From contig JAUCBJ010005081.1 in the NCBI GenBank assembly GCA_032718475.1, forward strand, positions 1-49,719: 49,719 bases of DNA, given 5' to 3'. The notes beneath the pieces were generated by a model. It was not told the DNA's origin, did not search any database, and worked only from the letters and a program-made list of their open reading frames with translations. The position numbers were made by a program, and so were the translations under genes. Numbering within the stretch: the first letter of the stretch is position 1; each line of letters starts with the position of its first letter. Source of the stretch: Nemertoderma westbladi (Eukaryota; Animalia; Xenacoelomorpha). This document shows positions 14,275 through 49,719 of this stretch, one piece after another.

Positions 14275-17200
14275 AGGTCCCCAAATAACCTGGAACTCTG
14301 TATCGTCCAGGTAGGTCTCCAACTAACCTGGAACTCTGTATCGTCCAGGTAGGTCTCCAACTAACCTGGAACTCTGTATCGTCCAGGTAGGTCTCCGACT
14401 AACCTGGAACTCTGTATCGTCCAGGTAGGTCTCCAACTAACCTGGAACTCTGTATCGTCCAGGTAGGTCTCCAACTAACCTGGAACTCTGTATCGTCCAG
14501 GTAGGTTTCCAACTAACCTGGAACTCTGTATCGCCCAGGTAGGTCTCCAACTAACCTGGAACTCTGTATCGTCCAGGTAGGTCTCCAACTAACCTGGAAC
14601 TCTGTATCGTCCAGGTAGGTCTCCGACTAACCTGGAACTCTGTATCGTCCAGGTAGGTCCCCAACTAACCTAGAACTCTGTATCATCCAGGTAGGTCCCC
14701 AACTAACCTAGAACTCTGTATCGTCCAGGTAGGTCTCCAACTAACCTGGAACCCTGTATCGTCCAGGTAGGTCTCCAACGAACCTGGAACTCTGTATCGT
14801 CCAGGTAGGTCTCCAACTAACCTGGAACTCTGTATCGTCCAGGTAGGTCTCCGACTAACCTGGAACCCTGTATCGTCCAGGTAGGTCCCCAACTAACCTG
14901 GAACTCTGTATCGTCCAGGTAGGTCTCCAACTAACCTGGAACTCTGTATCGTCCAGGTAGGTCCCCAACTAACCTGGAACTCTGTATCGTCCAGGTAGGT
15001 CTCCAACTAACCTAGAACTCTGTATCGTCCAGGTAGGTCTCCAACTAACCTGGAACCCTGTATCGTCCAGGTAGGTCTCCAACGAACCTGGAACTCTGTA
15101 TCGTCCAGGTAGGTCTCCAACTAACCTGGAACTCTGTATCGTCCAGGTAGGTCTCCAACTAACCTGGAACTCTGTATCGTCCAGGTAGGTCCCCAACTAA
15201 CCTAGAACTCTGTATCATCCAGGTAGGTCCCCAACTAACCTAGAACTCTGTATCGTCCAGGTAGGTCTCCAACTAACCTAGAACTCTGAATCGTCCAGGT
15301 CTCAAACTAACCTGGAACTCTGTATCGTCCAGGTAGGTCTCCAACTAACCTGGAACTCGGTATCGTCCAGGTAGGTCCTCAACTAACCTGGAACTCTGTA
15401 TCGTCCAGGTAGGTTTCCAACTAACCTGGAACTCTGTATCGTCCAGGTAGGTCTCCAACTAACCTAGAACTCTGAATCGTCCAGGTAGGTCTCCAACTAA
15501 CCTGGAACTCTGAATCGTCCAGGTAGGTCTCCAACTAACCTGGAACTCTGTATCGTCCAGGTAGGTTTCCAACTAACCTGGAACTCTGTATCGTCCAGGT
15601 AGGTCTCCAACTAACCTAGAACTCTGAATCGTCCAGGTAGGTCTCCAACTAACCTGGAACTCTGAATCGTCCAGGTAGGTCTCCAACTAACCTGGAACTC
15701 GGTATCGTCCAGGTAGGTCCTCAACTAACCTAGAACTCTGAATCGTCCAGGTCTCAAACTAACCTGGAACTCTGTATCGTCCAGGTAGGTCTCCGACTAA
15801 CCTGGAACTCTATATCGTCCAGGTAGGTCTCCAACTAACCTGGAACTCTGAATCGTCCAGGTAGGTCTCCAACTAACCTGGAACTCGGTATCGTCCAGGT
15901 AGGTCCTCAACTAACCTATAACTCTGAATCGTCCAGGTCTCAAACTAACCTGGAACTCTGTATCGTCCAGGTAGGTCTCAAACTAACCTGGAACTCTGTA
16001 TCGTCCAGGTAGGTCTCCGACTAACCTGGAACTCTGTATCGTCCAGGTAGGTCTCCAACTAACCTGGAACTCGGTATCGTCCAGGTAGGTCCTCAACTAA
16101 CCTAGAACTCTGAATCGTCCAGGTCTCAAACTAACCTGGAACTCTGTATCGTCCAGGTAGGTCCCCAACTAACCTGGAACTCTGTATCGTCCAGGTAGGT
16201 CTCAAACTAACCTGGAACTCTGTATCGTCCAGGTAGGTCTCCAACTAACCTAGAACTCTGAATCGTCCAGGTCTCAAACTAACCTGGAACTCTGTATCGT
16301 CCAGGTAGGTCTCCAACTAACCTAGAACTCTGAATCGTCCAGGTCTCAAACTAACCTGGAACTCTGTATCGTCCAGGTAGGTCTCAAACTAACCTGGAAC
16401 TCTGTATCGTCCAGGTAGGTCTCCAACTAACCTAGAACTCTGAATCGTCCAGGTCTCAAACTAACCTGGAACTCTGTATCGTCCAGGTAGGTCTCCAACT
16501 AACCTAGAACTCTGAATCGTCCAGGTCTCAAACTAACCTGGAACTCTGTATCGTCCAGGTAGGTCTCCAACTAACCTAGAACTCTGAATCGTCCAGGTAG
16601 GTCTCCAACTAACCTGGAACTCTGTATCGTCCAGGTAGGTCTCCAACTAACCTGGAACTCTGTATCGTCCAGGTAGGTCTCCGACTAACCTGGAACTCTG
16701 TATCGTCCAGGTAGGTCTCCAACTAACCTAGAACTCTGTATCGTCCAGGTAGGTCTCCGACTAACCTGGAACTCTGTATCGTCCAGGTAGGTCTCCAACT
16801 AACCTAGAACTCTGAATCGTCCAGGTAGGTCTCCAACTAACCTGGAACTCTGTATCGTCCAGGTAGGTCTCCAACTAACCTGGAACTCTATATCGTCCAG
16901 GTAGGTCTCCAACTAACCTGGAACTCTGTATCGCCCAGGTAGGTCTCCAACTAACCTGGAACTCTGTATCGCCCAGGTAGGTCTCCAACTAACCTGGAAC
17001 TCTGTATCGTCCAGGTAGGTCTCCAACTAACCTGGAACTCTGTATCGTCCAGGTAGGTCTCCAACTAACCTGGAACTCTGTATCGTCCAGGTAGGTCTCC
17101 AACTAACCTGGAACTCTGTATCGTCCAGGTAGGTCTCCAACTAACCTGGAACTCTGTATCGTACAGGTAGGTCTCCAACTAACCTGGAACTCTGTATCGC

Positions 17201-17750
17201 CCAGGTAGGTCTCCAACTAACCTGCTGGAACGCTGTATCGTCCAGGTAGGTCTCCAACTAACCTAGAACTCTGAATCGTCCAGGTAGGTCTCCAACTAAC
17301 CTGGAACTCTGTATCGTCCAGGTAGGTCTCCAACTAACCTGGAACTCTGTATCGTCCAGGTAGGTCTCAAACTAACCTGGAACTCTGTATCGTCCAGGTA
17401 GGTCTCCAACTAACCTAGAACTCTGAATCGTCCAGGTCTCAAACTAACCTGGAACTCTGTATCGTCCAGGTAGGTCTCCAACTAACCTGGAACTCTGTAT
17501 CGTCCAGGTAGGTCTCCAACTAACCTGGAACTCTGTATCGTCCAGGTAGGTTTCCAACTAACCTGGAACTCTGTATCGTCCAGGTAGGTCTCCAACTAAC
17601 CTGGAACTCTGTATCGTCCAGGTAGGTCTCAAACTAACCTGGAACTCTGTATCGTCCAGGTAGGTCTCAAACTAACCTGGAACTCTGTATCGTCCAGGTA
17701 GGTCTCCAACTAACCTGGAACTCTGTATCGTCCAGGTAGGTCTCCAACTT
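14275..17750. repeat. 38-bp tandem array (~90 copies) of exon end plus splice donor
   Basis: Minus unit GGAGACCTACCTGGACGATACAGAGTTCCAG|GTTAGTT: last 31 nt of exon 17715-17879 plus the first intron bases. Confidence 0.97.
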
Positions 17751-17879: not shown

Positions 17880-17979
17880 CTTTATAAAATGTTTATAATA
17901 TTAATACCATTACTAACGGATACAAGCAAGCAAACAGTCGGCCGAAACCGGAGGCGACCCGAAGGCCCCTCTTTTGATA

Positions 17980-19457
17980 GCTGCTACCCGGGGGTTGGGG
18001 TGGGCGCTACTCATATCTGCTACCCGAAGATAGGGGTGGGCGCTACTCTTATCTGCTACCCGAAGATAGGGGTGGGCGCTACTCTTATCTGCTACCCGAA
18101 GATAGGGGTGGGCGCTACTCTTATCTGTTACCCGAGGGTAGGGGTGGGCGCTACTCTTATCTGCTACCCGAAGATAGGGGTGGGCGCTACTCTTATCTGC
18201 TACCCGAAGATAGGGGTGGGCGCTACTCTTATCTGCTACCCGAAGATAGGGGTGGGCGCTACTCTTATCTGCTACCCGAAGATAGGGGTGGGCGCTACTC
18301 TTATCTGCTACCCGAAGATAGGGGTGGGCGCTACTCTTATCTGCTACCCGGGGGTTGGGGTGGGCGCTACTCATATCTGCTACCCGAAGATAGGGGTGGG
18401 CGCTACTCTTATCTGCTACCCGAAGATAGGGGTGGGCGCTACTCTTATCTGCTACCCGAAGATAGGGGTGGGCGCTACTCTTATCTGCTACCCGAAGGTA
18501 GGGGTGGGCGCTACTCTTATCTGCTACCCGAAGATAGGGGTGGGCGCTACTCTTATCTGCTACCCGAAGATAGGGGTGGGCGCTACTCTTATCTGTTACC
18601 CGAGGGTAGGGGTGGGCGCTACTCTTATCTGCTACCCGAAGATAGGGGTGGGCGCTACTCTTATCTGCTACCCGAAGATAGGGGTGGGCGCTACTCTTAT
18701 CTGCTATCCGAAGATAGGGGTGGGCGCTACTCTTATCTGCTACCCGAAGATAGGGGTGGGCGCTACTCTTATCTGCTACCCGAAGATAGGGGTGGGCGCT
18801 ACTCTTATCTGCTACCCGAAGATAGGGGTGGGCGCTACTCATATCTGCTACCCGAAGATAGGGGTGGGCGCTACTCTTATCTGCTACCCGAAGATAGGGG
18901 TGGGCGCTACTCTTATCTGCTACCCGAAGATAGGGATGGGCGCTACTCTTATATGCTACCCGAAGATAGGGGTGGGCGCTACTCTTATCTGCTACCCGAA
19001 GATAGGGGTGGGCGCTACTCTTATCTGCTACCCGAAGATAGGGGTGGGCGCTACTCTTATCTGCTACCCGAAGATAGGGGTGGGCGCTACTCTTATCTGC
19101 TACCCGAAGATAGGGGTGGGCGCTACTCTTATCTGCTACCCGAAGATAGGGGTGGGCGCTACTCATATCTGCTACCCGAAGATAGGGGTGGGCGCTACTC
19201 TTATCTGCTACCCGAAGATAGGGGTGGGCGCTACTCTTATCTGCTACCCGAAGATAGGGATGGGCGCTACTCTTATCTGCTACCCGAAGATAGGGGTGGG
19301 CGCTACTCTTATCTACTACCTGAAGATAGGGGTGGGCGCTACTCTTATCTGCTACCCGAAGATAGGGGTGGGCGCTACTCTTATCTGCTACCCGAAGATA
19401 GGGGTGGGCGCTACTCTTATCTGCTACCCGAAGATAGGGGTGGGCGCTACTCTTATC
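17980..19457. repeat. 36-bp intronic minisatellite (~41 copies)
   Basis: Unit ATCTGCTACCCGAAGATAGGGGTGGGCGCTACTCTT. Contains no exon sequence. Confidence 0.97.
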
Positions 19458-19521
19458 CCATGTTTTGCTCCCAAGTAATTTAACTGGTACTCATTTATGT
19501 GTGTAGTCAGTCACAACTCAC

Positions 19522-19643: not shown

Positions 19644-20679
19644 CTGAAAATAAAATAGTTAAAAATAAACCGGGGTTCTATCGCGAGTCACAACAGACAA
19701 TAGTATAGTGAACTTAAGGGCACCCCCATAGGGACACACGTCTTCTATAAATGTAGGACACATAAGTGTGCATGTAGAAAAGGTTTTGCCTTGGAATTTG
19801 GCAATCATGTTTTATGGCTTTTCAGACAACTATTTGATAGGGTAGATTAAAAATATTTATTACGGCCTCAGGGGCTCAGGAAATTGTTCAGTTTCATAGA
19901 GTAACCAATTTTACTGGTTTTCGAAATTTTGTCAACTCTGTATGATGTGATTTTAGAACAAAACATGCTCAATTTATAATTCTAGACTCATTCAAAATTT
20001 CATAGAAATTTACCAAACCAATCAAGAGATATATACCTAAACAAACAAAGGTCGGGAAATTTTAATTAGCGGGAAATTGCACTTAAAGTTGAAACATTAA
20101 AAACAGCGCTATGAATAACATACTGTAATATATGAATGTAACCTCAAATTGAAAGTAATATCCACTGTATTGTTGCAGAAACAACACAAGCAATTAGGCA
20201 ATTTACTTTAAATATTATAATTAGTATGTGTAGGTAAGCTACAATTAACATATTAATGTAATACTGTAACTATGAAATATACTATAAATTTAGGGAGCGG
20301 TGTTAGAGTCAATCTCATTAAGATGATTTAATATTATGATCTGTTAGTGATTTTAAATATTAAAAATTGTTCTCAATAAGTAACTTTAAAAATAGATAAA
20401 TAATACTCAAATATACTTATGTATTAGTTTTGATACCTATTTTTGAAATTATTGTGTCCTTGCATTATTTTGCCTATCGGAAAGAATAATACAGTATAGT
20501 AAGAATACATCACATGCGTCAGGTGATTTGGGTGTATTCAAAGCTATAAAACTATAACAGATATAAATAAACCCATTTCGGTTTTGATTTCAGCATAAAC
20601 TTTTACATCAGAATATATGTATATAAAAAAAAATTTGGAATAATTTAAGATTTTTGCCCTATGTACCTTAAACAGTAAC

Positions 20680-21277
20680 ATGTAACTCACGGGAACTTAT
20701 ACAGACCCACGTAACTCACAGGAACTTATACAGACCCACGTAACTCACAGGAACTTATACAGACCCATGTAACTCACCGGAACTTATACAGACCCACGTA
20801 AGTCACAGGAACTTATACAGACCCACGTAACTCACAGGAACTTATACAGACCCACGTAACTCACAGGAACATATACAGACCCACGTAACTCACAGGAACT
20901 TATACAGACCCATGTAACGCACCGGAACTTATACAGACCCATGTAACTCACAGGAACTTATACAGACCCACGTAACTCACAGGAACATATACAGACCCAC
21001 GTAACTCACAGGAACTTATACAAACCCATGTAACTCACAGGAACTTATACAGACCCACGTAACTCACAGGAACTTATACAGACCCATGTAACGCACCGGA
21101 ACTTATACAGACCCATGTAACTCACAGGAACTTATACAGACCCACGTAACTCACAGGAACATATACAGACCCACGTAACTCACAGGAACTTATACAAACC
21201 CACGTAACTCACAGGAACTTATACAGACCCACGTAACTCACAGGAACATATACAGACCCACGTAACTCACAGGAACT
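20680..21277. repeat. 29-bp tandem array (~20 copies) spanning a splice donor
   Basis: Minus unit AGTTCCT|GTGAGTTACGTGGGTCTGTATA begins at the end of exon 21271-22039. Confidence 0.96.
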
Positions 21278-22039
21278 GTACTCCAACGCGGTGAGTAAGG
21301 AGCAGCGTCTCTCCGCATCCCAGCGGTGTCTGGCGGTACCGGTGACGGCCTGGCCAACGGGCCACCAACCCAACCAGACGAACACGGCCCCCGGGGAGGC
21401 GTCGAGGAGGAAGACGGCGGGTTGATCCAAGGGTCGGAACAGTTCCGCCTGCGGGAACGGGCAGTGGGTCGGGTCGGAACGGGAGTGAACCAACGGGGAG
21501 ACCAACTCGTTGGCTTGGAACGTTCCGGAGACGCTGCTCAGACGGAACAGTCGCTGCGAGAACGACGGCCCACTCTGATTGTTTGGCTGCCGGTCATACA
21601 GAGTTAAACAACTCGCGTCTCCTAGCAACAGCAGAAAATTCGACGGCTCGGCGTGTTCCTCGCATTCGATTACTTTGAGTTCCGAATCTTTCCGTTCCGT
21701 TTCTCCCCGGGGGAAACCGAACTCAGTGGGTCGGTCCGACTTCAACCGACCAATCGCGTGTCGCGCCGCATCCCTGGATTGCGGGGTTGCTAGGCAACCA
21801 ATCCAAAGGTAACATGAGAAACTCGAGGAATCCATTAGGATCAGACACAGACGGGATCGCAACGAACGAACCGACAACTCCGTCTGCACCAAATAGACCT
21901 CGGAAGAGATGTCGCCACGACAACAGTACAGACGCGGACCAATAGGTGGAACTGAATCACGGTTGCCATGGTGAACCGCCATACCACCCTGGAATATCTG
22001 CGTGAAGGCTGGGGGTTCTTTGGATTCAGCAACTCGAAC
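21271..22039 (-). CDS. SVIL: Supervillin-like exon (gelsolin repeats), 769 bp
   Basis: gttacag|VRVAESKEPPAFTQIFQGGMAVH...SLRSR...YLWIGC...FVWLGWWP...RWDAERRCSLLTALEYSS-T|gtgagt; phase 0/1. Confidence 0.95.
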
Positions 22040-22073
22040 CTGTAACATAAAACATAACGGCATACTGAAAGGC

Positions 22074-22511: not shown

Positions 22512-22652
22512 GGTGCAAAGTTCAATGTCAAAATGTCGGTCTTTCAAAACCAAATTGGCCACTTTTGAAGAGAATGAATCAAAGAAGTTTTATTTTTCAG
22601 GATTGTTGACCCGGTAATTGATCACGAGTTTCCATGGTTACCGAACACCAAC

Positions 22653-22813
22653 CTGCGGTCCTTTCTCTTCGTCCAACTCGATCGTCATTAACGCGGACGC
22701 ACACTTCTCGGTTACGGTGCTCGCGGCGCCCTGCCAGCAGAAATAAACGCAACGGACGCGGCCGGTACCGGAGGAAATAACTCGAGAGGCTCCGCCACGC
22801 AGACTCCGGGTTC
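22653..22813 (-). CDS. SVIL: Supervillin-like exon
   Basis: gctatag|(G)TRSLRGG...[34 protein letters not shown]|gttggt; phase 1/0. Confidence 0.95.
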
Positions 22814-23008
22814 CTATAGCAACAGATAAACAGATACCTAGAGGTTCCTATAGCAACGGATAAATGGGTATCTAGGGGTTCCTATAGCAACAAATAATCA
22901 GTTACCTTGGGGTTCCTATAGCAACAGATAAACAGTTATATACCTAATGGTTACCATAGCAACATATAAACAGTTACCTAGGGGTTCCTATAGCAACAGA
23001 TAAACATG
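22809..23008. repeat. ~34-38-bp degenerate tandem array (6 copies) spanning a splice acceptor
   Basis: Minus unit TAGGTAACTGTTTATCTGTTGCTATAG|GAACC. It fills nearly all of the 209-bp intron. Confidence 0.88.
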
Positions 23009-23022
23009 TCGATTCAACCTAC

Positions 23023-23134: not shown

Positions 23135-23623
23135 CTAGGGAACATAGAGGTAGAACAAGGTTCTTAGAAAAGTAGTCCAAACTCCAAACCAATGCAACGT
23201 CCAGTTCCACTAAATACATCATCCAAAAATTAACCGTAACCTTTAAACTATTACATTAACAAATCTAAATATTAATAAAAATTAAAATTTCCATATTTCA
23301 TAAAACTTACAGTTACAATACAATTCGGGATACAATAGAGTCCGGGAATAAAAGCCTCAAATGATTCTAAACGAAGCTTTCAAATTTTCATTAAATAATA
23401 GCAAAATGTAGTTCACTCGCTTTATTTGTGACAAGTTCTACTATACGACGCGGTTTACTATACGATTTAATGAATAGACATCTACGCAACATCCGCAATC
23501 GGTAACCACACGGCGACGATACCTGTAGTGATTGCTATAATCTCAAATCGTCGAAGGGTTTAACATTGTCGATATTTCTCTATAAGGTCTTTCATTTGCT
23601 TTAAGGGCGTAGTTTCTATAGCA

Positions 23624-26600
23624 ACTTACCTGGACCTCAATACTTGTGACTGAGTGTCCACGTATTTCTATTGGACCCAACTAACCTGGACCTAAATACT
23701 TGTGACTGAGTGTCCACGTATTTCTATTGGACCCAACTTACCTGGACCTAAATACTTGTGACTGAGTGTCCACGTCTTTCTATTGGACCCAACTTACCTG
23801 GACCTAAATACTTGTGACTGAGTGTCCACGTCTTTCTATTGGACCCAACTTACCTGGACCACAATACTTGTGACTGAGTGTCCACGTCTTTCTATTGGAC
23901 CCAACTAACCTGGACCTAAATACTTGTGACTGAGTGTCCACGTATTTCTATTGGACCCAACTTACCTGGACCTAAATACTTGTGACTGAGTGTCCACGTC
24001 TTTCTATTGGACCCAACTTACCTGGACCTAAATACTTGTGACTGAGTGTCCACATCTTTCTATTGGACCCAACTTACCTGGACCTAAATACTTGTGACTG
24101 AGTGTCCACGTCTTTCTATTGAACCCAACTTACCTGGACCTCAATACTTGTGACTGAGTGTCCACGTATTTCTATTGGACCCAACTTACCTGGACCTCAA
24201 TACTTGTGACTGAGTGTCCACGTCTTTCTATTGGACCCAACTTACCTGGACCTCAATACTTGTGACTGAGTGTCCACGTCTTTCTATTGGACCCAACTTA
24301 CCTGGACCTCAATACTTGTGACTGAGTGTCCACGTCTTTCTATTGAACCCAACTTACCTGGACCTCAATACTTGTGACTGAGTGTCCACGTCTTTCTATT
24401 GGACCCAACTTACCTGGACCTCAATACTTGTGACTGAGTGTCCACGTCTTTCTATTGGACCCAACTTACCTGGACCTCAATACTTGTGACTGAGTGTCCA
24501 CATCTTTCTATTGGACCCAACTTACCTGGACCTAAATACTTGTGACTGAGTGTCCACGTCTTTCTATTGAACCCAACTTACCTGGACCTCAATACTTGTG
24601 ACTGAGTGTCCACGTATTTCTATTGGACCCAACTTACCTGGACCTCAATACTTGTGACTGAGTGTCCACGTCTTTCTATTGGACCCAACTTACCTGGACC
24701 TCAATACTTGTGACTGAGTGTCCACGTCTTTCTATTGGACCCAACTTACCTGGACCTAAATACTTGTGACTGAGTGTCCACTTATTTCTATTGGACCCAA
24801 CTTACCTGGACCTAAATACTTGTGACTGAGTGTCCACGTCTTTCTATTGGACCCAACTTACCTGGACCTAAATACTTGTGACTGAGTGTCCACATCTTTC
24901 TATTGGACCCAACTTACCTGGACCTAAATACTTGTGACTGAGTGTCCACGTCTTTCTATTGAACCCAACTTACCTGGACCTCAATACTTGTGACTGAGTG
25001 TCCACGTCTTTCTATTGGACCCAACTTACCTGGACCTAAATACTTGTGACTGAGTGTCCACGTCTTTCTATTGAACCCAACTTACCTGGACCTCAATACT
25101 TGTGACTGAGTGTCCACGTATTTCTATTGGACCCAACTTACCTGGACCTCAATACTTGTGACTGAGTGTCCACGTCTTTCTATTGGACCCAACTTACCTG
25201 GACCTCAATACTTGTGACTGAGTGTCCACGTCTTTCTATTGGACCCAACTTACCTGGACCACAATACTTGTGACTTGAGTGTCCACGTCTTTCTATTGGA
25301 CCCAACTTACCTGGACCTCAATACTTGTGACTGAGTGTCCACGTATTTCTATTGGGTCCAACTTACCTGGACCTCAATACTTGTGACTGAGTGTCCACGT
25401 CTTTCTATTGGGTCCAACTTACCTGGACCTCAATACTTGTGACTGAGTGTCCACGTCTTTCTATTGGATCCAATTTACCGGCACCTCAATACTTGGTCCA
25501 CGTCTTTCTATTGGACCCAACTTACCTGGACCACAATACTTGTGACTTGAGTGTCCACGTCTTTCTATTGGACCCAACTTACCTGGACCTCAATACTTGT
25601 GACTGAGTGTCCACGTATTTCTATTGGGTCCAACTTACCTGGACCTCAATACTTGTGACTGAGTGTCCACGTCTTTCTATTGGGTCCAACTTACCTGGAC
25701 CTCAATACTTGTGACTTGAGTGTCCACGTCTTTCTATTGGACCCAACTTACCTGGACCTCAATACTTGTGACTGAGTGTCCACGTCTTTCTATTGGACCC
25801 AACTTACCTGGACCTCAATTCTTGTGACTGAGTGTCCACGTCTTTCTATTGGACCCAACGTACCTGGACCTCAATACTTGTGACTGAGTGTACACATCTT
25901 TATATTGGGTCCAACTTACCTGGACCTCAATACTTGTGACTGAGCGTCCACGTCTTTCTATTGGACCCAACTTACCTGGACCTCAATTATTGTGACTGAG
26001 TGTCCACGTCTTTCTATTGGACCCAACTTACCTGGACCTCAATTCTTGTGACTGAGTGTCCACGTCTTTCTATTAGACCCAACTTACCTGGACCTCAATA
26101 CTTGTGACTGAGTGTCCACGTCTTTCTATTGGACCCAACTTACCTGGACCTCAATACTTGTGACTGAGTGTCCACGTCTTTCTATTGGACCCAACTTACC
26201 TGGACCTCAATTATTGTGACTGAGTGTCCACGTCTTTCTATTGGACCCAACTTACCTGGACCTCAATACTTGTGACTGAGTGTCCACGTCTTTCTATTGG
26301 ACCCAACTTACCTGGACCTCAATACTTGTGACTGAGTGTCCACGTCTTTCTATTGGACCCAACTTACCTGGACCTCAATTCTTGTGACTGAGTGTCCACG
26401 TCTTTCTATTGGACCCAACTTACCTGGACCTCAATACTTGTGACTGAGTGTCCATGTCTTTCTATTGGACCCAACTTACCTGGACCTCAATACTTGTGAC
26501 TGAGTGTCCATGTCTTTCTATTGGACCCAACTTACCTGGACCTCAATTCTTGTGACTGAGTGTCCACGTCTTTCTATTGGACCCAACTTACCTGGACCTA

Positions 26601-29600
26601 AATACTTGTGACTGAGTGTCCACTTATTTCTATTGGACCCAACTTACCTGGACCTAAATACTTGTGACTGAGTGTCCACGTCTTTCTATTGGACCCAACT
26701 TACCTGGACCTAAATACTTGTGACTGAGTGTCCACATCTTTCTATTGGACCCAACTTACCTGGACCTAAATACTTGTGACTGAGTGTCCACGTCTTTCTA
26801 TTGAACCCAACTTACCTGGACCTCAATACTTGTGACTGAGTGTCCACGTCTTTCTATTGGACCCAACTTACCTGGACCTAAATACTTGTGACTGAGTGTC
26901 CACATCTTTCTATTGGACCCAACTTACCTGGACCTAAATACTTGTGACTGAGTGTCCACGTCTTTCTATTGAACCCAACTTACCTGGACCTCAATACTTG
27001 TGACTGAGTGTCCACGTATTTCTATTGGACCCAACTTACCTGGACCTCAATACTTGTGACTGAGTGTCCACGTCTTTCTATTGGACCCAACTTACCTGGA
27101 CCTCAATACTTGTGACTGAGTGTCCACGTATTTCTATTGGACCCAACTTACCTGGACCTCAATACTTGTGACTGAGTGTCCACGTCTTTCTATTGGACCC
27201 AACTTACCTGGACCTCAATACTTGTGACTGAGTGTCCACGTCTTTCTATTGGACCCAACTTACCTGGACCACAATACTTGTGACTTGAGTGTCCACGTCT
27301 TTCTATTGGACCCAACTTACCTGGACCTCAATACTTGTGACTGAGTGTCCACGTATTTCTATTGGGTCCAACTTACCTGGACCTCAATACTTGTGACTGA
27401 GTGTCCACGTCTTTCTATTGGGTCCAACTTACCTGGACCTCAATACTTGTGACTGAGTGTCCACGTCTTTCTATTGGATCCAATTTACCGGCACCTCAAT
27501 ACTTGGTCCACGTCTTTCTATTGGACCCAACTTACCTGGACCACAATACTTGTGACTTGAGTGTCCACGTCTTTCTATTGGACCCAACTTACCTGGACCT
27601 CAATACTTGTGACTGAGTGTCCACGTATTTCTATTGGGTCCAACTTACCTGGACCTCAATACTTGTGACTGAGTGTCCACGTCTTTCTATTGGGTCCAAC
27701 TTACCTGGACCTCAATACTTGTGACTGAGTGTCCACGTCTTTCTATTGGATCCAATTTACCGGCACCTCAATACTTGGTCCACGTCTTTCTATTGGACCC
27801 AACTTACCTGGACCACAATACTTGTGACTTGAGTGTCCACGTCTTTCTATTGGACCCAACTTACCTGGACCTCAATACTTGTGACTGAGTGTCCACGTAT
27901 TTCTATTGGGTCCAACTTACCTGGACCTCAATACTTGTGACTGAGTGTCCACGTCTTTCTATTGGGTCCAACTTACCTGGACCTCAATACTTGTGACTTG
28001 AGTGTCCACGTCTTTCTATTGGACCCAACTTACCTGGACCTCAATACTTGTGACTGAGTGTCCACGTCTTTCTATTGGACCCAACTTACCTGGACCTCAA
28101 TTCTTGTGACTGAGTGTCCACGTCTTTCTATTGGACCCAACGTACCTGGACCTCAATACTTGTGACTGAGTGTACACATCTTTATATTGGGTCCAACTTA
28201 CCTGGACCTCAATACTTGTGACTGAGCGTCCACGTCTTTCTATTGGACCCAACTTACCTGGACCTCAATTATTGTGACTGAGTGTCCACGTCTTTCTATT
28301 GGACCCAACTTACCTGGACCTCAATTCTTGTGACTGAGTGTCCACGTCTTTCTATTAGACCCAACTTACCTGGACCTCAATACTTGTGACTGAGTGTCCA
28401 CGTCTTTCTATTGGACCCAACTTACCTGGACCTCAATACTTGTGACTGAGTGTCCACGTCTTTCTATTGGACCCAACTTACCTGGACCTCAATTATTGTG
28501 ACTGAGTGTCCACGTCTTTCTATTGGACCCAACTTACCTGGACCTCAATACTTGTGACTGAGTGTCCACGTCTTTCTATTGGACCCAACTTACCTGGACC
28601 TCAATACTTGTGACTGAGTGTCCACGTCTTTCTATTGGACCCAACTTACCTGGACCTCAATTCTTGTGACTGAGTGTCCACGTCTTTCTATTGGACCCAA
28701 CTTACCTGGACCTCAATACTTGTGACTGAGTGTCCATGTCTTTCTATTGGACCCAACTTACCTGGACCTCAATACTTGTGACTGAGTGTCCATGTCTTTC
28801 TATTGGACCCAACTTACCTGGACCTCAATTCTTGTGACTGAGTGTCCACGTCTTTCTATTGGACCCAACTTACCTGGACCTCAATACTTGTGACTGAGTG
28901 TCCACGTCTTTCTATTGGACCCAACTTACCTGGACCTCAATTCTTGTGACTGAGTGTCCACGTCTTTCTATTGGACCCAACTTACCTGGACCTCAATACT
29001 TGTGACTGAGTGTCCATGTCTTTCTATTGGACCCAACTTACCTGGACCTCAATTCTTGTGACTGAGTGTCCACGTCTTTCTATTGGACCCAACTTACCTG
29101 GACCTCAATACTTGTGACTGAGTGTCCACGTCTTTCTATTGGACCCAACTTACCTGGACCTCAATTCTTGTGACTGAGTGTCCACGTCTTTCTATTGGAC
29201 CCAACTTACCTGGACCTCAATACTTGTGACTGAGTGTCCATGTCTTTCTATTGGACCCAACTTACCTGGACCTCAATACTTGTGACTGAGTGTCCACGTC
29301 TTTCTATTGGACCCAACTTACCTGGACCTCAATACTTGTGACTGAGTGTCCACGTCTTTCTATTGGACCCAACTTACCTGGACCTCAATACTTGTGACTG
29401 AGTGTCCACGTCTTTCTATTGGACCCAACTTACCTGGACCTCAATACTTGTGACTGAGTGTCCACGTCTTTCTATTGGATCCAATTTCCCTGCACCTCAA
29501 TACTTGGTCCACGTCTTTCTATTGGACCCAACTTACCTGGACCTCAATACTTGTGACTGAGTGCCCACGTCTTTCTATTGGGTCCAACTTACCTGCACTT

Positions 29601-32110: not shown

Positions 32111-32224
32111 ACCAGAGCCACGGCCCAAATTAATACCTTCTAGAACCAGTCCTGGTGTTACTGGCGCCCCGTCTCCCATCATTAGTCGTGCGTCGGTAGG
32201 TCGGAGATCCGATATCGCATCCCC
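32057..32224 (-). CDS. SVIL: Supervillin-like exon, flanked by arrays on both sides
   Basis: atttag|GDAISDLRPTDARLMM...LVLEGINLGRGSGKLDPIERRGHSVTSIEVQ|gtaagt; phase 0/0; matches the supervillin segment ILDGVNVGRG.G as I recall it. Confidence 0.92.
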
Positions 32225-32229
32225 CTAAA

Positions 32230-35200: not shown

Positions 35201-36339
35201 AATATAATGAATGATAGGAAATATAATGAATGATAAGGAAATATAATGAATGATAAGGAAATATAATGAATGATAAGGACATATAATGAATGATAAGGAC
35301 ATATAATGAATGATAAGGAAATATAATGAATGATAAGGACATATAATGAATGATAAGGAAATATAATGAATGATAAGGAAATATAATGAATGATAAGGAA
35401 ATATAATGAATGATAAGGAAATATAATGAATGATAAGGAAATATAATGAATGATAAGGAAATATAATGAATGATAAGGATATATAATGAATGATAAGGAA
35501 ATATAATGAATGATAAGGACATATAATGAATGATAAGGAAATATAATGAATGATAAGGAAATATAATGAATGATAAGGAAATATAATGAATGATAAGGAT
35601 ATATAATGAATGATAAGGAAATATAATGAATGATAAGGAAATATAATGAATGATAGGAAATATAATGAATGATAAGGAAATATAATGAATGATAAGGAAA
35701 TATAATGAATGATAAGGAAATATAATGAATGATAAGGATATATAATGAATGATAAGGAAATATAATGAATGATAAGGACATATAATGAATGATAAGGATA
35801 TATAATGAATGATAAGGAAATATAATGAATGATAAGGATATATAATGAATGATAAGGATATATAATGAATGATAAGGATATATAATGAATGATAAGGAAA
35901 TATAATGAATGATAAGGAAATATAATGAATGATAAGGATATATAATGAATGATAAGGATATATAATGAATGATAAGGATATATAATGAATGATAAGGAAA
36001 TATAATGAATGATAAGGAAATATAATGAATGATAGGAAATATAATGAATGATAAGGAAATATAATGAATGATAAGGAAATATAATGAATGATAAGGAAAT
36101 ATAATGAATGATAAGGATATATAATGAATGATAAGGAAATATAATGAATGATAAGGACATATAATGAATGATAAGGAAATATAATGAATGATAAGGATAT
36201 ATAATGAATGATAAGGAAATATAATGAATGATAAGGAAATATAATGAATGATAAGGAAATATAATGAATGATAAGGAAATATAATGAATGATAAGGAAAT
36301 ATAATGAATGATAAGGACATATAATGAATGATAAGGAAA
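32230..36339. repeat. 20-bp satellite (~205 copies) abutting a splice acceptor
   Basis: Plus unit ATAATGAATGATAAGGAAAT. On minus it reads ATTTCCTTATCATTCATTAT and grades into the polypyrimidine tract ATTTCCTTATCCTTCCTTATATTTAG. Confidence 0.97.
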
Positions 36340-36439
36340 CTTATATTTAAAAATAAAACTATTAAAAAAATTCGATTTGCAATTCTATTTATAATAAAAG
36401 CGTTTATTAGTCCAAACTATGGGTTCTTTTATGAACACC

Positions 36440-38269: not shown

Positions 38270-39963
38270 TATTCCTGTTTCACTATGCGGCACTATCCCT
38301 ATTACGTTGCTGTTTCACTATGCGGCACTATCCCTATTACGTTGCTGTTTCACTATGCGGCACTATCCCTATTACGTTGCTGTTTCACTATGCGGCACTA
38401 TCCCTATTACGTTGTTGTTTCATTATGCAGCACAATCCCTATTTCGTTGCTGTTTCACTATGCGGCACTATCCCTATTACATTGCTGTTTCACAATGCGG
38501 CACTATCCCTATTACGTTGCTGTTTCATTATGCAGCACAATCCCTATTTCGTTGCTGTTTCACTATGCGGCACTATCCCTATTACGTTGCTGTTTCACAA
38601 TGCGGCACTATCCCTATTACGTTGCTGTTTCATTATGCAGCACAATCCCTATTACGTTGCTGTTTCACTATGCGGCACTATCCCTATTACGTTGCTGTTT
38701 CACAATGCGGCACTAACCCTATTACTTTGCTGTTTCATTATGCAGCACAAACCCTATTACGTTGTTGTTTATTATGCAGCATTAACCCTATTAGTTGTTG
38801 TTACATTATGCAGTACTAACCCCATTACGTTGTTGTTCATTATGCAGCAGTAACCCTATTAGTTGCTGTTACATTATGCAGCATTAACCCTATTAGTTGT
38901 TGTTACATTATGCAGCATTAACCCTATTAGTTGTTGTTACATTATGCAGTACTAACCCCATTACGTTGTTGTTCATTATGCAGCACTAACCCTATTAGTT
39001 GCTGTTACATTATGCAGCATTAACCCTATTAGTTGTTGTTACATTATGCAGCATTAACCCTATTAGTTGTTGTTACATTATGCAGTACTAACCCCATTAC
39101 GTTGTTGTTCATTATGCAGCACTAACCCTATTAGTTGCTGTTACATTATGCAGCATTAACCCTATTAGTTGTTGTTACATTATGCAGCATTAACCCTATT
39201 AGTTGTTGTTACATTATGCAGTACTAACCCCATTACGTTGTTGTTCATTATGCAGCACTAACCCTATTAGTTGCTGTTACATTATGCAGCATTAACCCTA
39301 TTAGTTGTTGTTACATTATGCAGTACTAACCCCATTACGTTGTTGTTCATTATGCAGCACTAACCCTATTAGTTGCTGTTTCATTATGCAGTACTAACCC
39401 CATTACGTTGTTGTTCATTATGCAGCACTAACCCAATTAGTTGCTGTTACATTATGCAGCATTAACCCTATTAGTTGCTGTTACATTATGCAGCATTAAC
39501 CCTATTAGTTGTTGTTACATTATGCAGCATTAACCCTATTAGTTGTTGTTACATTATGCAGCATTAACCCTATTAGTTGTTGTTACATTATGCAGTACTA
39601 ACCCCATTACGTTGTTGTTCATTATGCAGCACTAACCCTATTAGTTGCTGTTACATTATGCAGCATTAACCCTATTAGTTGTTGTTACATTATGCAGTAC
39701 TAACCCCATTACGTTGTTGTTCATTATGCAGCACTAACCCTATTAGTTGCTGTTTCATTATGCAGTACTAACCCCATTACGTTGTTGTTCATTATGCAGC
39801 ACTAACCCAATTAGTTGCTGTTACATTATGCAGCATTAACCCTATTAGTTGTTGTTACATTATGCAGCATTAACCCTATTAGTTGTTGTTACATTATGCA
39901 GCACTAACCCTATTAGTTACTGCTTCGTTATGCAGCACTCACCCTATTAGGTTGCTGTTTCAC
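38270..39963. repeat. 34/35-bp tandem array (~48 copies) derived from exon end plus donor
   Basis: Minus unit AACAGCAACTAATAGG|GTTAGTGCTGCATAATG versus the real junction GAAACAGCAACCTAATAGG|GTGAGTGCTGCATAA. Confidence 0.95.
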
Positions 39964-42354: not shown

Positions 42355-45300
42355 AAATTTCATTAAGGTTTAAATTATAATTTATTTGACTAGCTAATAA
42401 AAAGTACTAGTACTAAGTTTTTTTATTAGCTAATAAAATCTACAGAATTAGCAGCTACCATCTTACTGTTAGAAAAACAAGTGTACCCAAGGTGTAGTAA
42501 TGCCAATATTAGCTGCGATTAAACAAACAGTTCAGAAGTTATAAACGAAAGTTATAATAAAAATAGCTGACATTCAAAATGACAATAAAATACTCCAGAT
42601 GCGAAACCGTCACCAATAATTAAATGGGTTTGTTACATCAAGTGTTTGAGACAGTCTTTACTGCAGTAATAGAAGTTTTAGGACTCGGATATTTAAATGA
42701 TATGTTAATCACGTGGAGAGCGACACAACTGTTGAAGAGTGAGACCGTACTGATACAGAAGGGGAAGGTGAAGTTAGCAGCAGTTAGTAAACGAAAACAA
42801 ACGCGACTAATAGATTCGATAAAGAAATACCAAAAACCGTTAAGTTGCAGAAACAATAGTTACACAGTGCCCGAGGTATGCGTTGGGTCACACGGAGTTG
42901 GTAGAACAGCTGGTATCAGTAGTGGTGCGGGGAGTAGTTCATGGGTGAGTGGTGGAGAAGAGATTGGAAGAGAGGAAGATATTGACGAGGGGTCTAGTGG
43001 TGGATCTTGGATTAGGGGTACTCGTATTGTTGGGAAGGGGATTGGCGGCGCGGGGATTGCTAGACCGGGGATTGGTTGGATTCCAAAAGGAAGTAGACGA
43101 GCTCACAGATCACGTGACCACTCCCATAATAGCCGTGTCCGAAGTCTACTGTCGCCGACCCTGGACGACCGGCCCAGACTGTTGTCATGGAGACCGCTAA
43201 CCGACGGCGACGACGTTAGCAACCATGCCCGAGACTCTAGCGGGTCACATATTTCTCTGACAGACTCCGTGGCGCCATACACAGAGTCACAAATAGATAA
43301 TTAGTACTGGGGGAGTGGGTTAGCCAAATAAAAAAGGTGACAAATTTCTTAGTGAGTATCTGTTGGTATAAATATGACAAAAAACCCAGACTCCCAAGAT
43401 CTGGATCATAACACAACACATTCCTTAGCAACATGTACTTAATCGTTTTTATGAAAACAGTCTTTAGTCTAATGTTACCAATTTAGTTTCCAGAACAAAG
43501 CAAATTAGTCTAACTAATCATAAAATCTCCGCTAACATTTAGTGGAAATAGTACACAGTACTAGTGTTTTGTACCCCCCCCCCCCCCCCCCACACCTCCT
43601 CAAAACACACTAGTACCATAGTACACATAGATGCGGACCTCCTTACTGTAATAATATGGTGGAATTTTCTATGTCTAAAAATTGTTTGCGACTCCTAGTT
43701 ACCGAGATATTAAAGCAACTAATGTACGACAGACCGGTGTACATTGTATTCCTTTTCGCTTGAATCTCAACTTATTGTACGCTTTTCTGGAACATAATTA
43801 TTTCTATCTTTATTCTCCCATATTCTACCTTTTGTGGGGCGAGCCACGACGTATGTGAGCCTTGGCATCGACTGACTGATGTCTGTCGTCGGAAGTATAC
43901 CCCGGTATTGGGTGTCTTTGGTGGGGCAATTACCTTGGAAGTATACCCCAGTATTGGGTGTATGATGGGGCAATTACCTTGGAAGTATACCCCAGTATTG
44001 GGTGTGTTTGGTGGGGCAATTACCTTGGAAGTATACCCCAGTATTGGGTGTATGGTGGGGCAATTACCTTGGAAGTATACCCCAGTATTGGGTGTGTTTG
44101 GTGGGGCAATTACCTTGGAAGTATACCCCAGTATTGGGTGTATGGTGGGGCAATTACCTTGGAAGTATACCCCAGTATTGGGTGTGTTTGGTGGGGCAAT
44201 TACCTTGGAAGTATACCCCAGTATTGGGTGCGTTTGGTGGGGCAATTACCTTGGAAGTATACCCCAGTATTGGGTGTGTTTGGTGGGGTAATTACCTTGG
44301 AAGTATACCCCAGTATTGGGTGTGTTTGGTGGGGTAATTACCTTGGAAGTATACCCCAGTATTGGGTGTGTTTGGTGGGGTAATTACCTTGGAAGTATAC
44401 CCCAGTATTGGGTGTGTTTGGTGGGGTAATTACCTTGGAAGTATACCCCAGTATTGGGTGTGTTTGGTGGGGTAATTACCTTGGAAGTATACCCCAGTAT
44501 TGGGTGTGTTTGGTGGGGTAATTACCTTGGAAGTATACCCCAGTATTGGGTGTGTTTGGTGGGGCAATTACCTTGGAAGTATACCCCAGTATTGGGTGTG
44601 TTTGGTGGGGTAATTACCTTGGAAGTATACCCCAGTATTGGGTGTGTTTGGTGGGGTAATTACCTTGGAAGTATACCCCAGTATTGGGTGTGTTTGGTGG
44701 GGCAATTACCTTGGAAGTATACCCCAGTATTGGGTGCGTTTGGTGGGGCAATTACCTTGGAAGTATAGCCCAGTATTGGGTGTATGGTGGGGCAATTACC
44801 TTGGAAGTATACCCCATTATTGGGTGTATGGTGGGGCAATTACCTTGGAAGTATACCCAAGTATTGGGTGTGTTTGGGTGGGGCAATTACCTTGGAAGTA
44901 TACCCCAGTATTGGGTGTGTTTGGGTGGGGCAATTACCTTGGAAGTATACCCCAGTATTGGGTGTGTTTGGTGGGGCAATTACCTTGGAAGTATACCCCA
45001 GTATTGGGTGTATAGTGGGGCAATTACCTTGGAAGTATACCCAAGTATTGGGTGTGTTTGGGTGGGGCAATTACCTTGGAAGTATACCCCAGTATTGGGT
45101 GTGTTTGGGTGGGGCAATTACCTTGGAAGTATACCCCAGTATTGGGTGTGTTTGGTGGGGCAATTACCTTGGAAGTATACCCCAGTATTGGGTGCGTTTG
45201 GTGGGGCAATTACCTTGGAAGTATAGCCAGGTATTGGGTGTATGGTGGGGCAATTACCTTGGAAGTATACCCCAGTATTGGGTGTATGGTGGGGCAATTA

Positions 45301-45542
45301 CCTTGGAAGTATACCCCAGTATTGTGTGTGTTTGGTGGGGCAATTACCTTGGAAGTATACCCCAGTATTGGGTGTGTTTGGTGGGGCAATTACCTTGGAA
45401 GTATACCCCAGTATTGGGTGTGTTTGGTGGGGCAATTACCTTGGATGTATACCCCAGTATTGGGTATATGGTGGGGCAATTACCTTGGAAGTATACCCAA
45501 GTATTGGGTGTGTTTGGGTGGGGCAATTACCTTGGAAGTATA

Positions 45543-47251
45543 CTACTACTACTAGGATCGGCATGCTGCATTGCAGCTGCATTTTTAAGAATGCTGTGCC
45601 GGCTTGTCAACAAATTTGCACCGCCACAACTCCCTATCACCCATGACATTTGCTAGATCATCCGCATCTTTAAGGCCAGTGTCCTTTAAGATGCGTCTCA
45701 AGAAAGTCATGGGCTGTCCACCATGCTTATTCACTCCATGAGGCTGCCAAAGTACAAGATTATGCACTGGCTGGTCCTCACGGCGAAAGCAATGTCCTGC
45801 AAAGCGGAGGCGATTTTGTTCTAGTGTCAAGCTTGGGGGAACCAATGAGACACCTCCAATGTTATATAGTGTCTGGTTGGAGATGTGTGCATTGTACTTG
45901 ACACAATGAACCCGGCGTAGCATTCTTGTGAATGTGCCGTCCAGAGATTTGGTGTCCTCAGCAGTTAGAGCCCAGCATGGACTCCCGTAGAGGAGTACTG
46001 GAACTACTGCTGCTCTAAATAATCGGACCTTAAGTTTCCGATTAATTCTAGGTGACTTCCAAATCCTGGAAAGCCTATTCAAGGCTGCCCATGCCTTTCC
46101 CTTACGTATTCGAAGGTCCTCACCTGACTTCCGGATCCATGATCCCAGGTAACAGAAGTCGTCCACATGCTCAAGCATACCATCCTTTGAGTTTATGATC
46201 ATCCGATCAGAGACTTGCTGAGGACTTTCAAAGTTAACTGTCAGAATTTTGGTCTTTCTGGAGTTAATAAAAAGACCAACACTAGAAGCAGCATGTTCTA
46301 ATGAGCTGAGGAGCCGTTGGGCTCCCTCTAATGATTCTGAGAGTACTCCTAAGTCATCAGCAAAGTCTAGATCAGTTAGATACTTGGCAGGATTTCCTCG
46401 ACTTCCTGAGCCAGTAGGTGGAGTTATCATCACCCCATCATCATTATGATGATCTAAGGACATGCGTAGAACATAGTCTACCACAATAATGAACAAGAAT
46501 GGTGCAAGTGTGTCTCCCTGGAGGACGCCCCATAACACTTCAAATGGTTCTGTGTCACCGTCAACAGTAGACACAAATGTTGTCGAACCATCGTATACTG
46601 ATCTGATTGCTGCAATAATTTCATCAGGAATCCCATATAATGAAAGTATGCTGAACATACGTGACCGAGAGACTGAATCAAAGGCCTTGAAGAAGTCAAC
46701 AAAGATAACAGCCAGATGCCTGTCTTTCTTTTTTGATAATTCTTCAATTATCCTTCTAAGAGCCAAAATGGGCTTCATGGTCCCACGACCTTTACGGAAC
46801 CCATTCTGATTTCCACGGAGCAGTCTCTCAATGGGATCCCTGATGCGATTTAATAGAATCCTATTGTATAGCTTTGCAGCAATCGAGATCAATGAGATTC
46901 CCCGAAAAGAACCATAGAGTGTTAGGTTGCCCTTCTTGGGAACTGGCACCAACTTATTTGTTTTCATTTCTTGTGGGACTCTTGTTGTTCGGTACATGTC
47001 TACTATGATGGGATAGATGAGCTTTAAACACTCAGGTATTTTAAAGACCTCAGGGGGAACACCATCTACTCCACTGGCACGATTGGTCTTAATGCTCTTT
47101 GCAGCAGCCTTCACTTCTGCAAAGGAGATATCGCCAATGGGAATATCTGGGAGTACAGACTCAGACACTTTTACTTCTATAAAGTTATCAGGCAATACCC
47201 TGTCATTATTGAGGAGCTTTTCAAAGTGGGCTTTCCAACCATTAAGGCGAA
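45543..47251 (-). mobile_element. 5'-truncated RTE-clade LINE with (TAG)n tail and 11-bp TSD
   Basis: TSD TTGGAAGTATA at 45532-45542 and 47252-47262; microsatellite tail; uninterrupted RT frame. Confidence 0.93.
45585..47251 (-). CDS. RTE-type reverse transcriptase, N-terminally truncated (no endonuclease, no native start)
   Basis: PVPKKG, FRGISL, QNGFRKGR, FVDFFKAFDSV, GVLQGDTLAPFLF, LDFADD, FCYLGS, RLRFAGH. Confidence 0.9.
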
Positions 47252-49719
47252 TTGGAAGTATAGCCCAGTATTGGGTGTATGGTGGGGCAATTACCTTGGA
47301 AGTATACCCCAGTATTGGGTGTATGGTGGGGCAATTACCTTGGAAGTATACCCCAGTATTGGGTGTGTTTGGTGGGGCAATTACCTTGGAAGTATACCCC
47401 AGTATTGGGTGTGTGTTGGTGGGGCAATTACCATGGAAGTATACCCCAGTATTGGGTGTATGGTGGGGCAATTACCTTGGAAGTATACCCCAGTATTGGG
47501 TGTGTGGTGGGGCAATTACCTTGGAAGTATACCCCAGTATTGGGTGTGTGGTGGGGCAATTACCTTGGAAGTATACCCCAGTATTGGGTGTGTGTTGGTG
47601 GGGCAATTACCATGGAAGTATACCCCAGTATCGGGTGTATGGTGGGGCAATTACCTTGGAAGTATACCCCAGTATTGGGTGTGTTTGGTGGGGCAATTAC
47701 CTTGGAAGTATACCCCAGTATTGGGTGTGTTTGGTGGGGCAATTACCTTGGAAGTATACCACAGTATTGGGTGTATGGTGGGGCAATTACCTTGGAAGTA
47801 TACCCCAGTATTGGGTGTGTGGTGGGGCAATTACCTTGGAAGTATACCCCAGTATTGGGTGTGTGGTGGGGCAATTACCTTGGAAGTATACCCCAGTATT
47901 GGGTGTGTGTTGGTGGGGCAATTACCATGGAAGTATACCCCAGTATCGGGTGTATGGTGGGGCAATTACCTTGGAAGTATACCCCAGTATTGGGTGTGTT
48001 TGGTGGGGCAATTACCTTGGAAGTATACCCCAGTATTGGGTGTGTGGTGGGGCAATTACCTTGGAAGTATACCCCAGTATTGGGTGTGTGTTGGTGGGGC
48101 AATTACCTTGGAAGTATACCCCAGTATTGGGTGTGTGTTGGTGGGGCAATTACCTTGGAAGTATACCCCAGTATTGGGTGTGTGGTGGGGCAATTACCTT
48201 GGAAGTATACCCCAGTATTGGGTGTGTTTGGTGGGGCAATTACCTTGGAAGTATACCCCAGTATTGGGTGCGTTTGGTGGGGCAATTACCTTGGAAGTAT
48301 ACCCCAGTATTGGGTGTATGGTGGGGCAATTGCCTTGGAAGTATACCCCAGTATTGGGTGTGTTTGGTGGGGCAATTACCTTGGAAGTATACCCCAGTAT
48401 TGGGTGTGTTTGGTGGGGCAATTACCTTGGAAGTATACCCCAGTATTGGGTGTATGGTGGGGCAATTGCCTTGGAAGTATACCCCAGTATTGGGTGTGTT
48501 TGGTGGGGCAATTACCTTGGAAGTATACCCCAGTATTGGGTGTATGGTGGGGCAATTACCTTGGAAGTATGCCCCAGTATTGGGTGTGTTTGGTGGGGTA
48601 ATTACCTTGGAAGTATACCCCAGTATTGGGTGTGTTTGGTGGGGTAATTACCTTGGAAGTATACCCCAGTATTGGGTGTGTTTGGTGGGGTAATTACCTT
48701 GGAAGTATACCCCAGTATTGGGTGTGTTTGGTGGGGCAATTACCTTGGAAGTATACCCCAGTATTGGGTGTGTTTGGTGGGGTAATTACCTTGGAAGTAT
48801 ACCCCAGTATTGGGTGTGTTTGGTGGGGTAATTACCTTGGAAGTATACCCCAGTATTGGGTGTGTTTGGTGGGGCAATTACCTTGGAAGTATACCCCAGT
48901 ATTGGGTGCGTTTGGTGGGGCAATTACCTTGGAAGTATAGCCCAGTATTGGGTGTATGGTGGGGCAATTACCTTGGAAGTATACCCCATTATTGGGTGTA
49001 TGGTGGGGCAATTACCTTGGAAGTATACCCAAGTATTGGGTGTGTTTGGGTGGGGCAATTACCTTGGAAGTATACCCCAGTATTGGGTGTGTTTGGGTGG
49101 GGCAATTACCTTGGAAGTATACCCCAGTATTGGGTGTGTTTGGTGGGGCAATTACCTTGGAAGTATACCCCAGTATTGGGTGTATAGTGGGGCAATTACC
49201 TTGGAAGTATACCCAAGTATTGGGTGTGTTTGGGTGGGGCAATTACCTTGGAAGTATACCCCAGTATTGGGTGTGTTTGGGTGGGGCAATTACCTTGGAA
49301 GTATACCCCAGTATTGGGTGTGTTTGGTGGGGCAATTACCTTGGAAGTATACCCCAGTATTGGGTGTGTTTGGGTGGGGCAATTACCTTGGAAGTATACC
49401 CCAGTATTGGGTGTGTTTGGTGGGGCAATTACCTTGGAAGTATACCCCAGTATTGGGTGTGTTTGGTGGGGCAATTACCTTGGAAGTATACCCCAGTATT
49501 GGGTGTGTTTGGTGGGGCAATTACCTTGGAAGTATACCCCAGTATTGGGTGTGTTTGGTGGGGCAATTACCTTGGAAGTATACCCCAGTATTGGGTGTGT
49601 TTGGTGGGGCAATTACCTTGGAAGTATACCCCAGTATTGGGTGTATAGTGGGGCAATTACCTTGGAAGTATACCCCAGTATTGGGTGTGTTTGGGTGGGG
49701 CAATTACCTTGGAAGTATA

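Follow-up and report, generated by a model that had tools for sequence, protein, structure and literature searches.

Tandem repeats whose units run across exon-intron borders are known from amphioxus, where they are called mirages and occur in Adh3, the globin genes BflGb6 and BflGb9, troponin C and PGBD5 (PMC3087553, PMC3902484). Amphioxus genes with mirages are spliced normally, and the mechanism that generates the repeats is called unclear (PMC3087553). Variable number tandem repeats (VNTRs) that span a donor site have been described in humans in intron 7 of F7 (37 bp), intron 13 of CBS (31 bp), the interferon-inducible gene 6-16, lamin B2 and PDGF (PMC1557585, PMC2630376), and preference for the first donor was demonstrated experimentally for F7 (PMC1557585). 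Internal tandem repeats at exon-intron boundaries have also been reported in human duplicated genes (PMC2812944). Here we describe such repeats in a supervillin gene of the xenacoelomorph Nemertoderma westbladi, within a stretch of 49,719 nt (contig JAUCBJ010005081.1 of assembly GCA_032718475.1; hereafter the window) that holds the 3′ part of the gene on its minus strand, with nine exons (E1 to E9) that give 641 open codons when joined, GT-AG borders at every exon junction of the model, and nine introns touched by the window.

Eight long arrays lie in these nine introns. Six of them span an exon-intron junction and show those properties of mirages that could be tested, namely head-to-tail units of 29-56 bp in about 6 to 153 copies, many (not all) of which keep AG or GT, turnover visible as nested block duplications within clusters flanked by divergent boundary units, and undisturbed splicing at the two arrays read in RNA. 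We interpret the six as mirage minisatellites that probably arose when short local stretches were duplicated, probably lengthened through unequal exchange, and are probably tolerated because splicing keeps to the exon-adjacent site, a reading to which we assign a probability of roughly 0.6.

Shared with amphioxus are border-spanning copies of both donor and acceptor type, unit sizes within the 10-72 bp range quoted for Adh3, many copies that keep AG or GT, normal splicing, and turnover in clusters with divergent edge units. The Nemertoderma gene differs in carrying six junction-spanning arrays in one stretch, the largest of which reaches about 153 copies and 8.4 kb (the globins and PGBD5 have 2-7 copies), and in having donor arrays outnumber acceptor arrays 5 to 1. 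As in the human VNTRs, the first unit crosses the exon-intron border, the donor is repeated into the intron, and the most upstream donor is used (PMC1557585); the exon-heavy geometry of three units here (38, 56, and 34/35 bp) is also that of human CBS (PMC2630376). Unlike this locus, the human cases have one array per gene, with 5-25 copies. The variable repeats of human duplicated genes likewise sit at exon-intron boundaries and alter gene structure, but there many make new introns or alternative transcripts in young paralogues, whereas here the coding sequence is unchanged and the donor-array introns keep their own acceptors (PMC2812944). The class of repeat is thus already known; its density in this gene is unusual.

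The arrays were called with Tandem Repeats Finder, and all of them, like the exons, are given on the minus strand. At the donor of E8 (17879-17715), about 92 copies of a 38-bp unit (14273..17749) hold 33-35 exon bases plus the donor, with GT kept in 91/92. E6 (22039-21271) is followed by about 21 copies of a 29-bp unit (20682..21277), which has only 7 exact exon bases and keeps GT in 21/21. The donor of E3 (32224-32057) is repeated in about 153 copies of a 56-bp unit (23622..32113), of which roughly 45-51 bases are exonic and 149/153 copies keep GT, and that of E2 (40197-39943) in about 49 copies of a 34/35-bp unit (38279..39959) with 29 of 35 bases exonic and GT in 37/49. The fifth donor array, with units of 44-47 bp (43891..49719; hereafter the 46-bp array), has 36 plus at least 54 copies, is clipped by the window end, and keeps GT in 88 of 93 anchor hits. 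By homology it is assigned to the putative donor of an exon beyond the window end: its unit peptide is in register with supervillin just before E1, ranking 1 of 1589 and 2 of 1681 positions in two of three homologues (P0001, with a differing anchor motif, is not counted). In all four donor arrays whose exon lies in the window, the authentic donor coincides exactly with the first of the donor-equivalent sites.

Acceptors are affected less often. At E5 (22813-22653), about six decayed copies (x5.7) of a 34-38-bp unit (22808..23006) nearly fill the 209-nt intron 4, and AG is kept in five of the six units. Before E3, 206 copies of a 20-bp unit (32227..36339; 74% pyrimidine) form a tract that is AG-free over 4,113 nt of the sense strand and abuts the acceptor without spanning the junction, stopping 2 nt short of the exon. 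The eighth array, 41 copies of a 36-bp unit in the middle of intron 7 (17981..19457), begins 64 nt from the donor, ends 101 nt from the acceptor, and holds no junction copy. The 20-bp and 36-bp arrays are both excluded from the mirages. A 525-codon open sense-strand frame across the 36-bp array (17916-19490) was considered as an exon and rejected, as chance readily leaves one frame of a 36-bp unit free of stops and no insert of this kind is present in homologues; from sequence and homologues, the frame is judged a chance product.

A preliminary description of this stretch had counted seven of eighteen splice sites with an array of their own, and the same seven emerge from Tandem Repeats Finder and the gene model. 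Its description of one acceptor-spanning unit and one amplified pyrimidine tract likewise agrees with the E5 array and the AG-free 20-bp array, the latter not spanning its junction. That all five donor units contain the exon 3′ end plus GT stands in part, for the first site is the authentic donor in 4/4, while the 29-bp unit matches its exon at so few bases and the exon of the 46-bp array is assigned through homology. Its estimate of more than 20 kb of added intron with the frame intact is borne out, since the seven junction-linked arrays amount to 22,557 of 33,757 intron bases (71% once the eighth array is added). It had missed the 36-bp array, a long interspersed nuclear element (LINE) that interrupts the 46-bp array, and a pair of stray, single copies of junctions.

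The same description had called the units mutually unrelated, which is true of 27 of 28 pairs; the exception is the pair of 38- and 56-bp units, which agree at 16 of 18 bases around the donor (p=0.005). A common origin of these two was rejected, as the 18 shared bases consist of the splice consensus and each exon's own last codons. A local, independent origin of each array, as had been proposed, is supported by unrelated units that stand in register with their own exons. The bounds of the 56-bp unit share an 8-of-9-base repeat, formed by the donor and, at the upstream breakpoint, a donor-like motif within the exon; repeats of this kind are typical seeds of slippage. Microhomology at the bounds of the other units amounts to at most 2-4 bases. 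Similarity of units to their exons ranges from 0.95 (38 bp) to 0.61 (29 bp), and the arrays therefore likely differ in age. In the 34/35-bp array, similarity to the exon is 0.71-0.72 proximally and 0.87 distally, so that the distal copies are closest to the exon, and in the 38-bp array the last unit is decayed. Variant maps reveal nested block duplications in three arrays, with 42 unit types in the 152 copies of the 56-bp array and 20 in 91 in another. Two internal blocks are also duplicated exactly, one of 1,376 bp in the 56-bp array and one of 795 bp in the 46-bp array (44400-45194 and 48572-49366, on either side of the LINE); both could be recent block duplications or assembly errors. The LINE itself is a 5′-truncated element (45544..47251, minus strand) with a reverse transcriptase (RVT_1, E=1e-28) and a flanking direct repeat of about 11 bp. 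The nested block duplications, and an element with its direct repeat lodged in one array, make the mirages look like real, aged minisatellites. Fragments of the 3′ end of the same LINE family occur elsewhere in the window, near 5514 and 13270.

Copying of junctions extends beyond the arrays. A single copy of the E8 3′ end (14153..14173, minus strand; 19/21 bases) lies 30 nt before the start of E9 and about 100 nt from the 38-bp array, with a score reached by 0/5000 shuffles. A decayed single copy of the intron 6/E7 acceptor junction (19672..19712, minus strand) was equalled in 0/5000 shuffles with the junction as query and in 13/5000 with exon bases only. These two were significant among 17 junction queries and the other 15 were not. 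Together with the junction-spanning arrays, they indicate that junctions were copied at least eight times in the window.

Evidence on splicing comes from one of four public sequencing runs (three studies) that cover the region, the contigs of which were examined on 21225-23660. Run X4 is taken as a transcriptome only because its contigs are spliced. One X4 contig starts precisely at 21271, where the 29-bp array has its first donor, and carries another 845 letters that lie off the stretch. A second contig bridges intron 5 (22036 to 22650) and intron 4 (22812 to 23022), and in intron 4 the last acceptor is used. The authentic site is thus used at two of the six junction-spanning arrays, those read directly in RNA, in contigs of one run in which rare forms would be invisible. 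Depths in X4 bins fit zero RNA cover of the 29-bp array and also fit the second contig running on into 33 bases of the 56-bp unit. This 33-base continuation fits the 56-bp unit being the end of E3, without telling which copy is used. In human 6-16 and CBS, the nearest decoys are partly used (PMC1557585), forms that contigs such as these cannot show. When decoy use was modelled in silico, an intact C-terminus resulted from 0/294 GT donors (four arrays) and 0/4 acceptors. Since the transcript uses the real site at both directly read junctions, the arrays are likely harmless. In intron 4 (22814-23022, minus strand), several units form a potential frame-shifting micro-exon, with an acceptor and a donor-like site 10 nt on, which is skipped by the RNA contig.

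In the mechanism that we favor, a 20-60 bp duplication would arise through slippage or microhomology-mediated repair, with clear microhomology (8 of 9) for the 56-bp unit only. It would persist only when the exon-adjacent copy retains a working splice site, and because survival needs a working site at the copy next to the exon, all extra copies would become intron. The array would then expand through unequal crossover or gene conversion, and any leaky use of decoys would yield a truncated product, mostly with an early stop. The acceptor side also fits such a filter, in that the large acceptor-side array is AG-free and the AG-containing one is short and decayed.

Several results weigh against this reading of the arrays as tolerated mirage minisatellites. 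Tolerance alone predicts no enrichment at junctions, and yet 6/8 long arrays span one, where 0.59 (pooled) or 1.75 (per intron) would be expected, with P about 1e-4 or less. With seeding confined to GC-rich (guanine- and cytosine-rich) sequence, the junction share that is expected goes up from 0.08 to only about 0.16, and P is about 1e-4 (seven arrays, the 20-bp one excluded); as weighting by GC just doubles the expected share, GC bias was rejected as the sole cause. Of the four donor units that can be measured, three have their end no more than about 8 nt from the donor (P=0.018, computed post hoc), and two stray copies of junctions are present as well. Two donor arrays sit in introns that collapse to 2.0 and 2.5 kb. 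Lastly, the direct RNA evidence covers two junctions and comes from a single run, whose assembled contigs lose rare forms.

These tests were made within one gene against nulls of uniform placement, with arrays collapsed and the LINE removed, a poly-C run omitted, both halves of the 46-bp array entered as one, and the 20-bp array treated as non-spanning. For the eight long arrays, the pooled null gives P=2.5e-6 for five at donors and 0/400,000 draws with six at junctions, and the per-intron null gives P=7e-5 for donors and P=1.2e-4 for junctions. When four short repeats, none at a junction, are added, the per-intron values become P=2e-4 (donors) and 6e-4 (junctions). The outcome depends on how long the introns were when the arrays were born: at 80 nt for all introns, P=0.06 for donors and 0.32 for junctions, and at 150 nt, 0.008 and 0.035. 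After arrays are collapsed and the LINE removed, the introns sum to 8.3 kb; four array-bearing introns collapse to 50, 188, 201 and 543 nt and the others to 1.1-2.5 kb. By these lengths, the argument from short introns is weak for the 2.0- and 2.5-kb introns unless later insertions lengthened them. A P near 1e-4 is also not evidence at the level of the genome, as the gene was chosen in hindsight out of a very large scan. The density could be explained by ancestral introns that were very short or by the post hoc choice of window. The excess over uniform and GC-weighted nulls in this gene makes it plausible that long arrays arise or expand in some places more readily than in others. Most likely, the density reflects a mixture of a modest bias of birth or growth toward the edges of exons, introns that were short at the time when several arrays originated, and the picking of an extreme gene. 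In the open-access articles searched, no genome-wide test of junction enrichment was found.

The strongest rival holds that mutation is targeted to junctions, with co-transcriptional splicing, polymerase pausing, R-loops or nucleosome boundaries at exon edges leading to breaks and templated re-synthesis that seed duplications ending just past the 5′ splice site. We regard this as possible, if unlikely. The excess within the gene holds under per-intron and GC-weighted nulls, donors exceed acceptors (5 vs 1), three of four units are exon-heavy, and a junction is spanned by 0/4 short two- or three-copy repeats vs 6/8 long arrays; the two stray copies, too, favor it. The human CBS unit, c.1444_1467+7, has like geometry with 24 exon and 7 intron bases (PMC2630376), but the 29-bp unit here and human F7, with 4 exon and 33 intron bases (PMC1557585), have the opposite. 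The enrichment belongs, furthermore, to a single gene selected post hoc, and it shrinks to the values just given if introns were 80 nt long. Sense-strand G skew of the type linked to R-loops is positive in four of five donor arrays and strongly negative in the fifth, the 46-bp array, and was rejected as inconsistent. Of the splice-focused mutational process put forward in the preliminary description, the junction excess over both kinds of null therefore stands, whereas its coupling to R-loops or splicing is not supported, given the reversed skew in 1/5 and an excess that vanishes at introns of about 80 nt. Rather doubtful, too, is a broader claim under which 5′ splice sites would themselves be hotspots of mutation, in this animal and perhaps across many invertebrates. 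A transcription- or spliceosome-linked lesion would, on this view, set off renewed copying of the last 30-50 bases of the exon, on to about 5-8 bases beyond the donor, and so seed minisatellites that supply most intron length.

Far less probable is that selection maintains the arrays, with decoys or longer introns tuning supervillin output through unproductive splicing and decay, or through timing. GT is retained in most decoys of the four in-window donor arrays, the donor still fits the consensus perfectly in 136 copies of the 56-bp unit, any decoy use would truncate the protein, and human 6-16 and CBS make some use of a few decoys (PMC1557585). This retention of GT is, however, attributable to recent homogenization, since copies in the two largest arrays match the exon at 93-95% identity, and in the more diverged 34/35-bp array 12/49 donors have lost GT and most of the others are weaker than the real site. 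The RNA contigs show authentic sites only, at both junctions read, and the units, sizes and states of decay all differ among arrays. Selective retention, which had been offered as an alternative in the preliminary description, is not upheld: tolerance alone cannot enrich junction over purely intronic arrays, and nothing points to a benefit.

It is more improbable still that the arrays, or most of their length, are artefacts of assembly. The exact internal duplications of 1,376 and 795 bp would fit such an origin, as would the end of the window inside an array, and the supporting evidence comes from short rather than long reads. Nevertheless, short-read contigs of X1 and X3, which are one sample and may be the source of the assembly, span the intron 4 array, and the 56-bp period is visible in contigs of X3 and of X2, which is from another study. 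Bins with the 29- and 56-bp repeats have a summed depth (not a copy number) far above adjacent single-copy bins in 3/3 DNA runs, and X2 shows substitutions and 1-nt gaps within the intron 4 array in short-read contigs from which copy number is not readable. The DNA runs thus support the presence of three arrays (29-bp, 56-bp and intron 4); array lengths are those of the assembly. The order of variants in nested blocks and the LINE with its direct repeat in the 46-bp array also speak against an artefact.

Finally, the creation of these introns by tandem duplication of an exon piece containing AG|GT (the Rogers-type intron gain put forward for mirages in PMC3087553) is scarcely credible, for even though intron 4 is nearly all array (16 non-array bases) with units that carry an acceptor plus a donor-like site, a separate non-repeat acceptor ends all five donor-array introns, the intron 4 donor lies outside its array, both splice sites derive from copies of one unit in neither case, and homologues align over every junction with no lost or doubled exon sequence.

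The identity of the host gene rests on homologues, since a Pfam scan of single exons at E 0.01 left 8/9 exons without a match and did not detect a gelsolin domain. The remaining exons of the model, all on the minus strand, are E1, the first in the window (41410-41323), E4 (23134-23023), E7 (19643-19522) and E9, the last coding exon, which runs from 14122 to a stop near 14048 and encodes the villin headpiece (VHP, PF02209, E=1.9e-6). E1, E3, E7 and E8 were placed by gene model and alignment of homologues, E4 and E5 by gene model and RNA contig, and E6, which encodes gelsolin-type repeats of supervillin, by all three kinds of evidence; the best match of the E2 model is a bivalve protein (58%). 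The spliced model is colinear with full-length supervillin homologues at 33-42% identity over about 650 residues, and E6 is 36-37% identical to fish supervillins. C-terminal gelsolin-type repeats are followed by the villin headpiece, in the order found in named supervillins, and no repeat-derived block of residues appears at any junction of the alignment. A bivalve protein is the closest among 18 protein matches (42%), and in a protein tree (18 rows; P0010 omitted for short coverage) the gene sits on a long, unplaced branch. A metagenome search for related loci gave 96 pattern matches, none of which was confirmed.

Other repeats and open frames occur in the window. Within intron 5, 22167-22500 is a very high-copy interspersed repeat with a summed depth 1e4-1e5x that of single-copy DNA bins; its related ends suggest a short interspersed nuclear element or a miniature inverted-repeat transposable element. 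Decayed, coding-like stretches in intron 2 (36500-37200) and intron 0 (42640-43300) are probably transposon remnants, and one scanned frame had no Pfam match. At 7590-11250 lies a long terminal repeat (LTR) retrotransposon whose two LTRs are each about 233 bp long and whose pol is frameshifted, with frames for reverse transcriptase, RNase H and integrase on the minus strand. An intronless open frame of 874 codons (224-2848, plus strand) matches nothing in Pfam and carries, close to its end, a zinc-knuckle-like region rich in Cys and His; it is possibly part of a mobile element. GC-rich imperfect repeats at 3340-4240 (a 95-bp unit x3 plus dispersed copies) include small hairpin-like palindromes, have no Rfam match at gathering thresholds (nor has any other part of the window), and share a 22-base piece with the open frame near 443-464. 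A near-perfect 18-bp repeat in nine copies (5904-6069) follows a Cys-rich stretch on the plus strand, is open in one frame, and may be the coding tail of a small gene.

The supervillin arrays offer a natural test bed for splice-site choice, with hundreds of near-identical decoy donors behind real ones and an AG-free tract of 4 kb before one acceptor. They also call for caution in annotation and assembly. Should such density prove usual across the genome, this species would allow the question of junction enrichment to be tested directly. Furthermore, if the 5′ splice site were indeed a mutational hotspot, a splicing process would reshape germline DNA and would drive the growth of introns and genomes without transposons.

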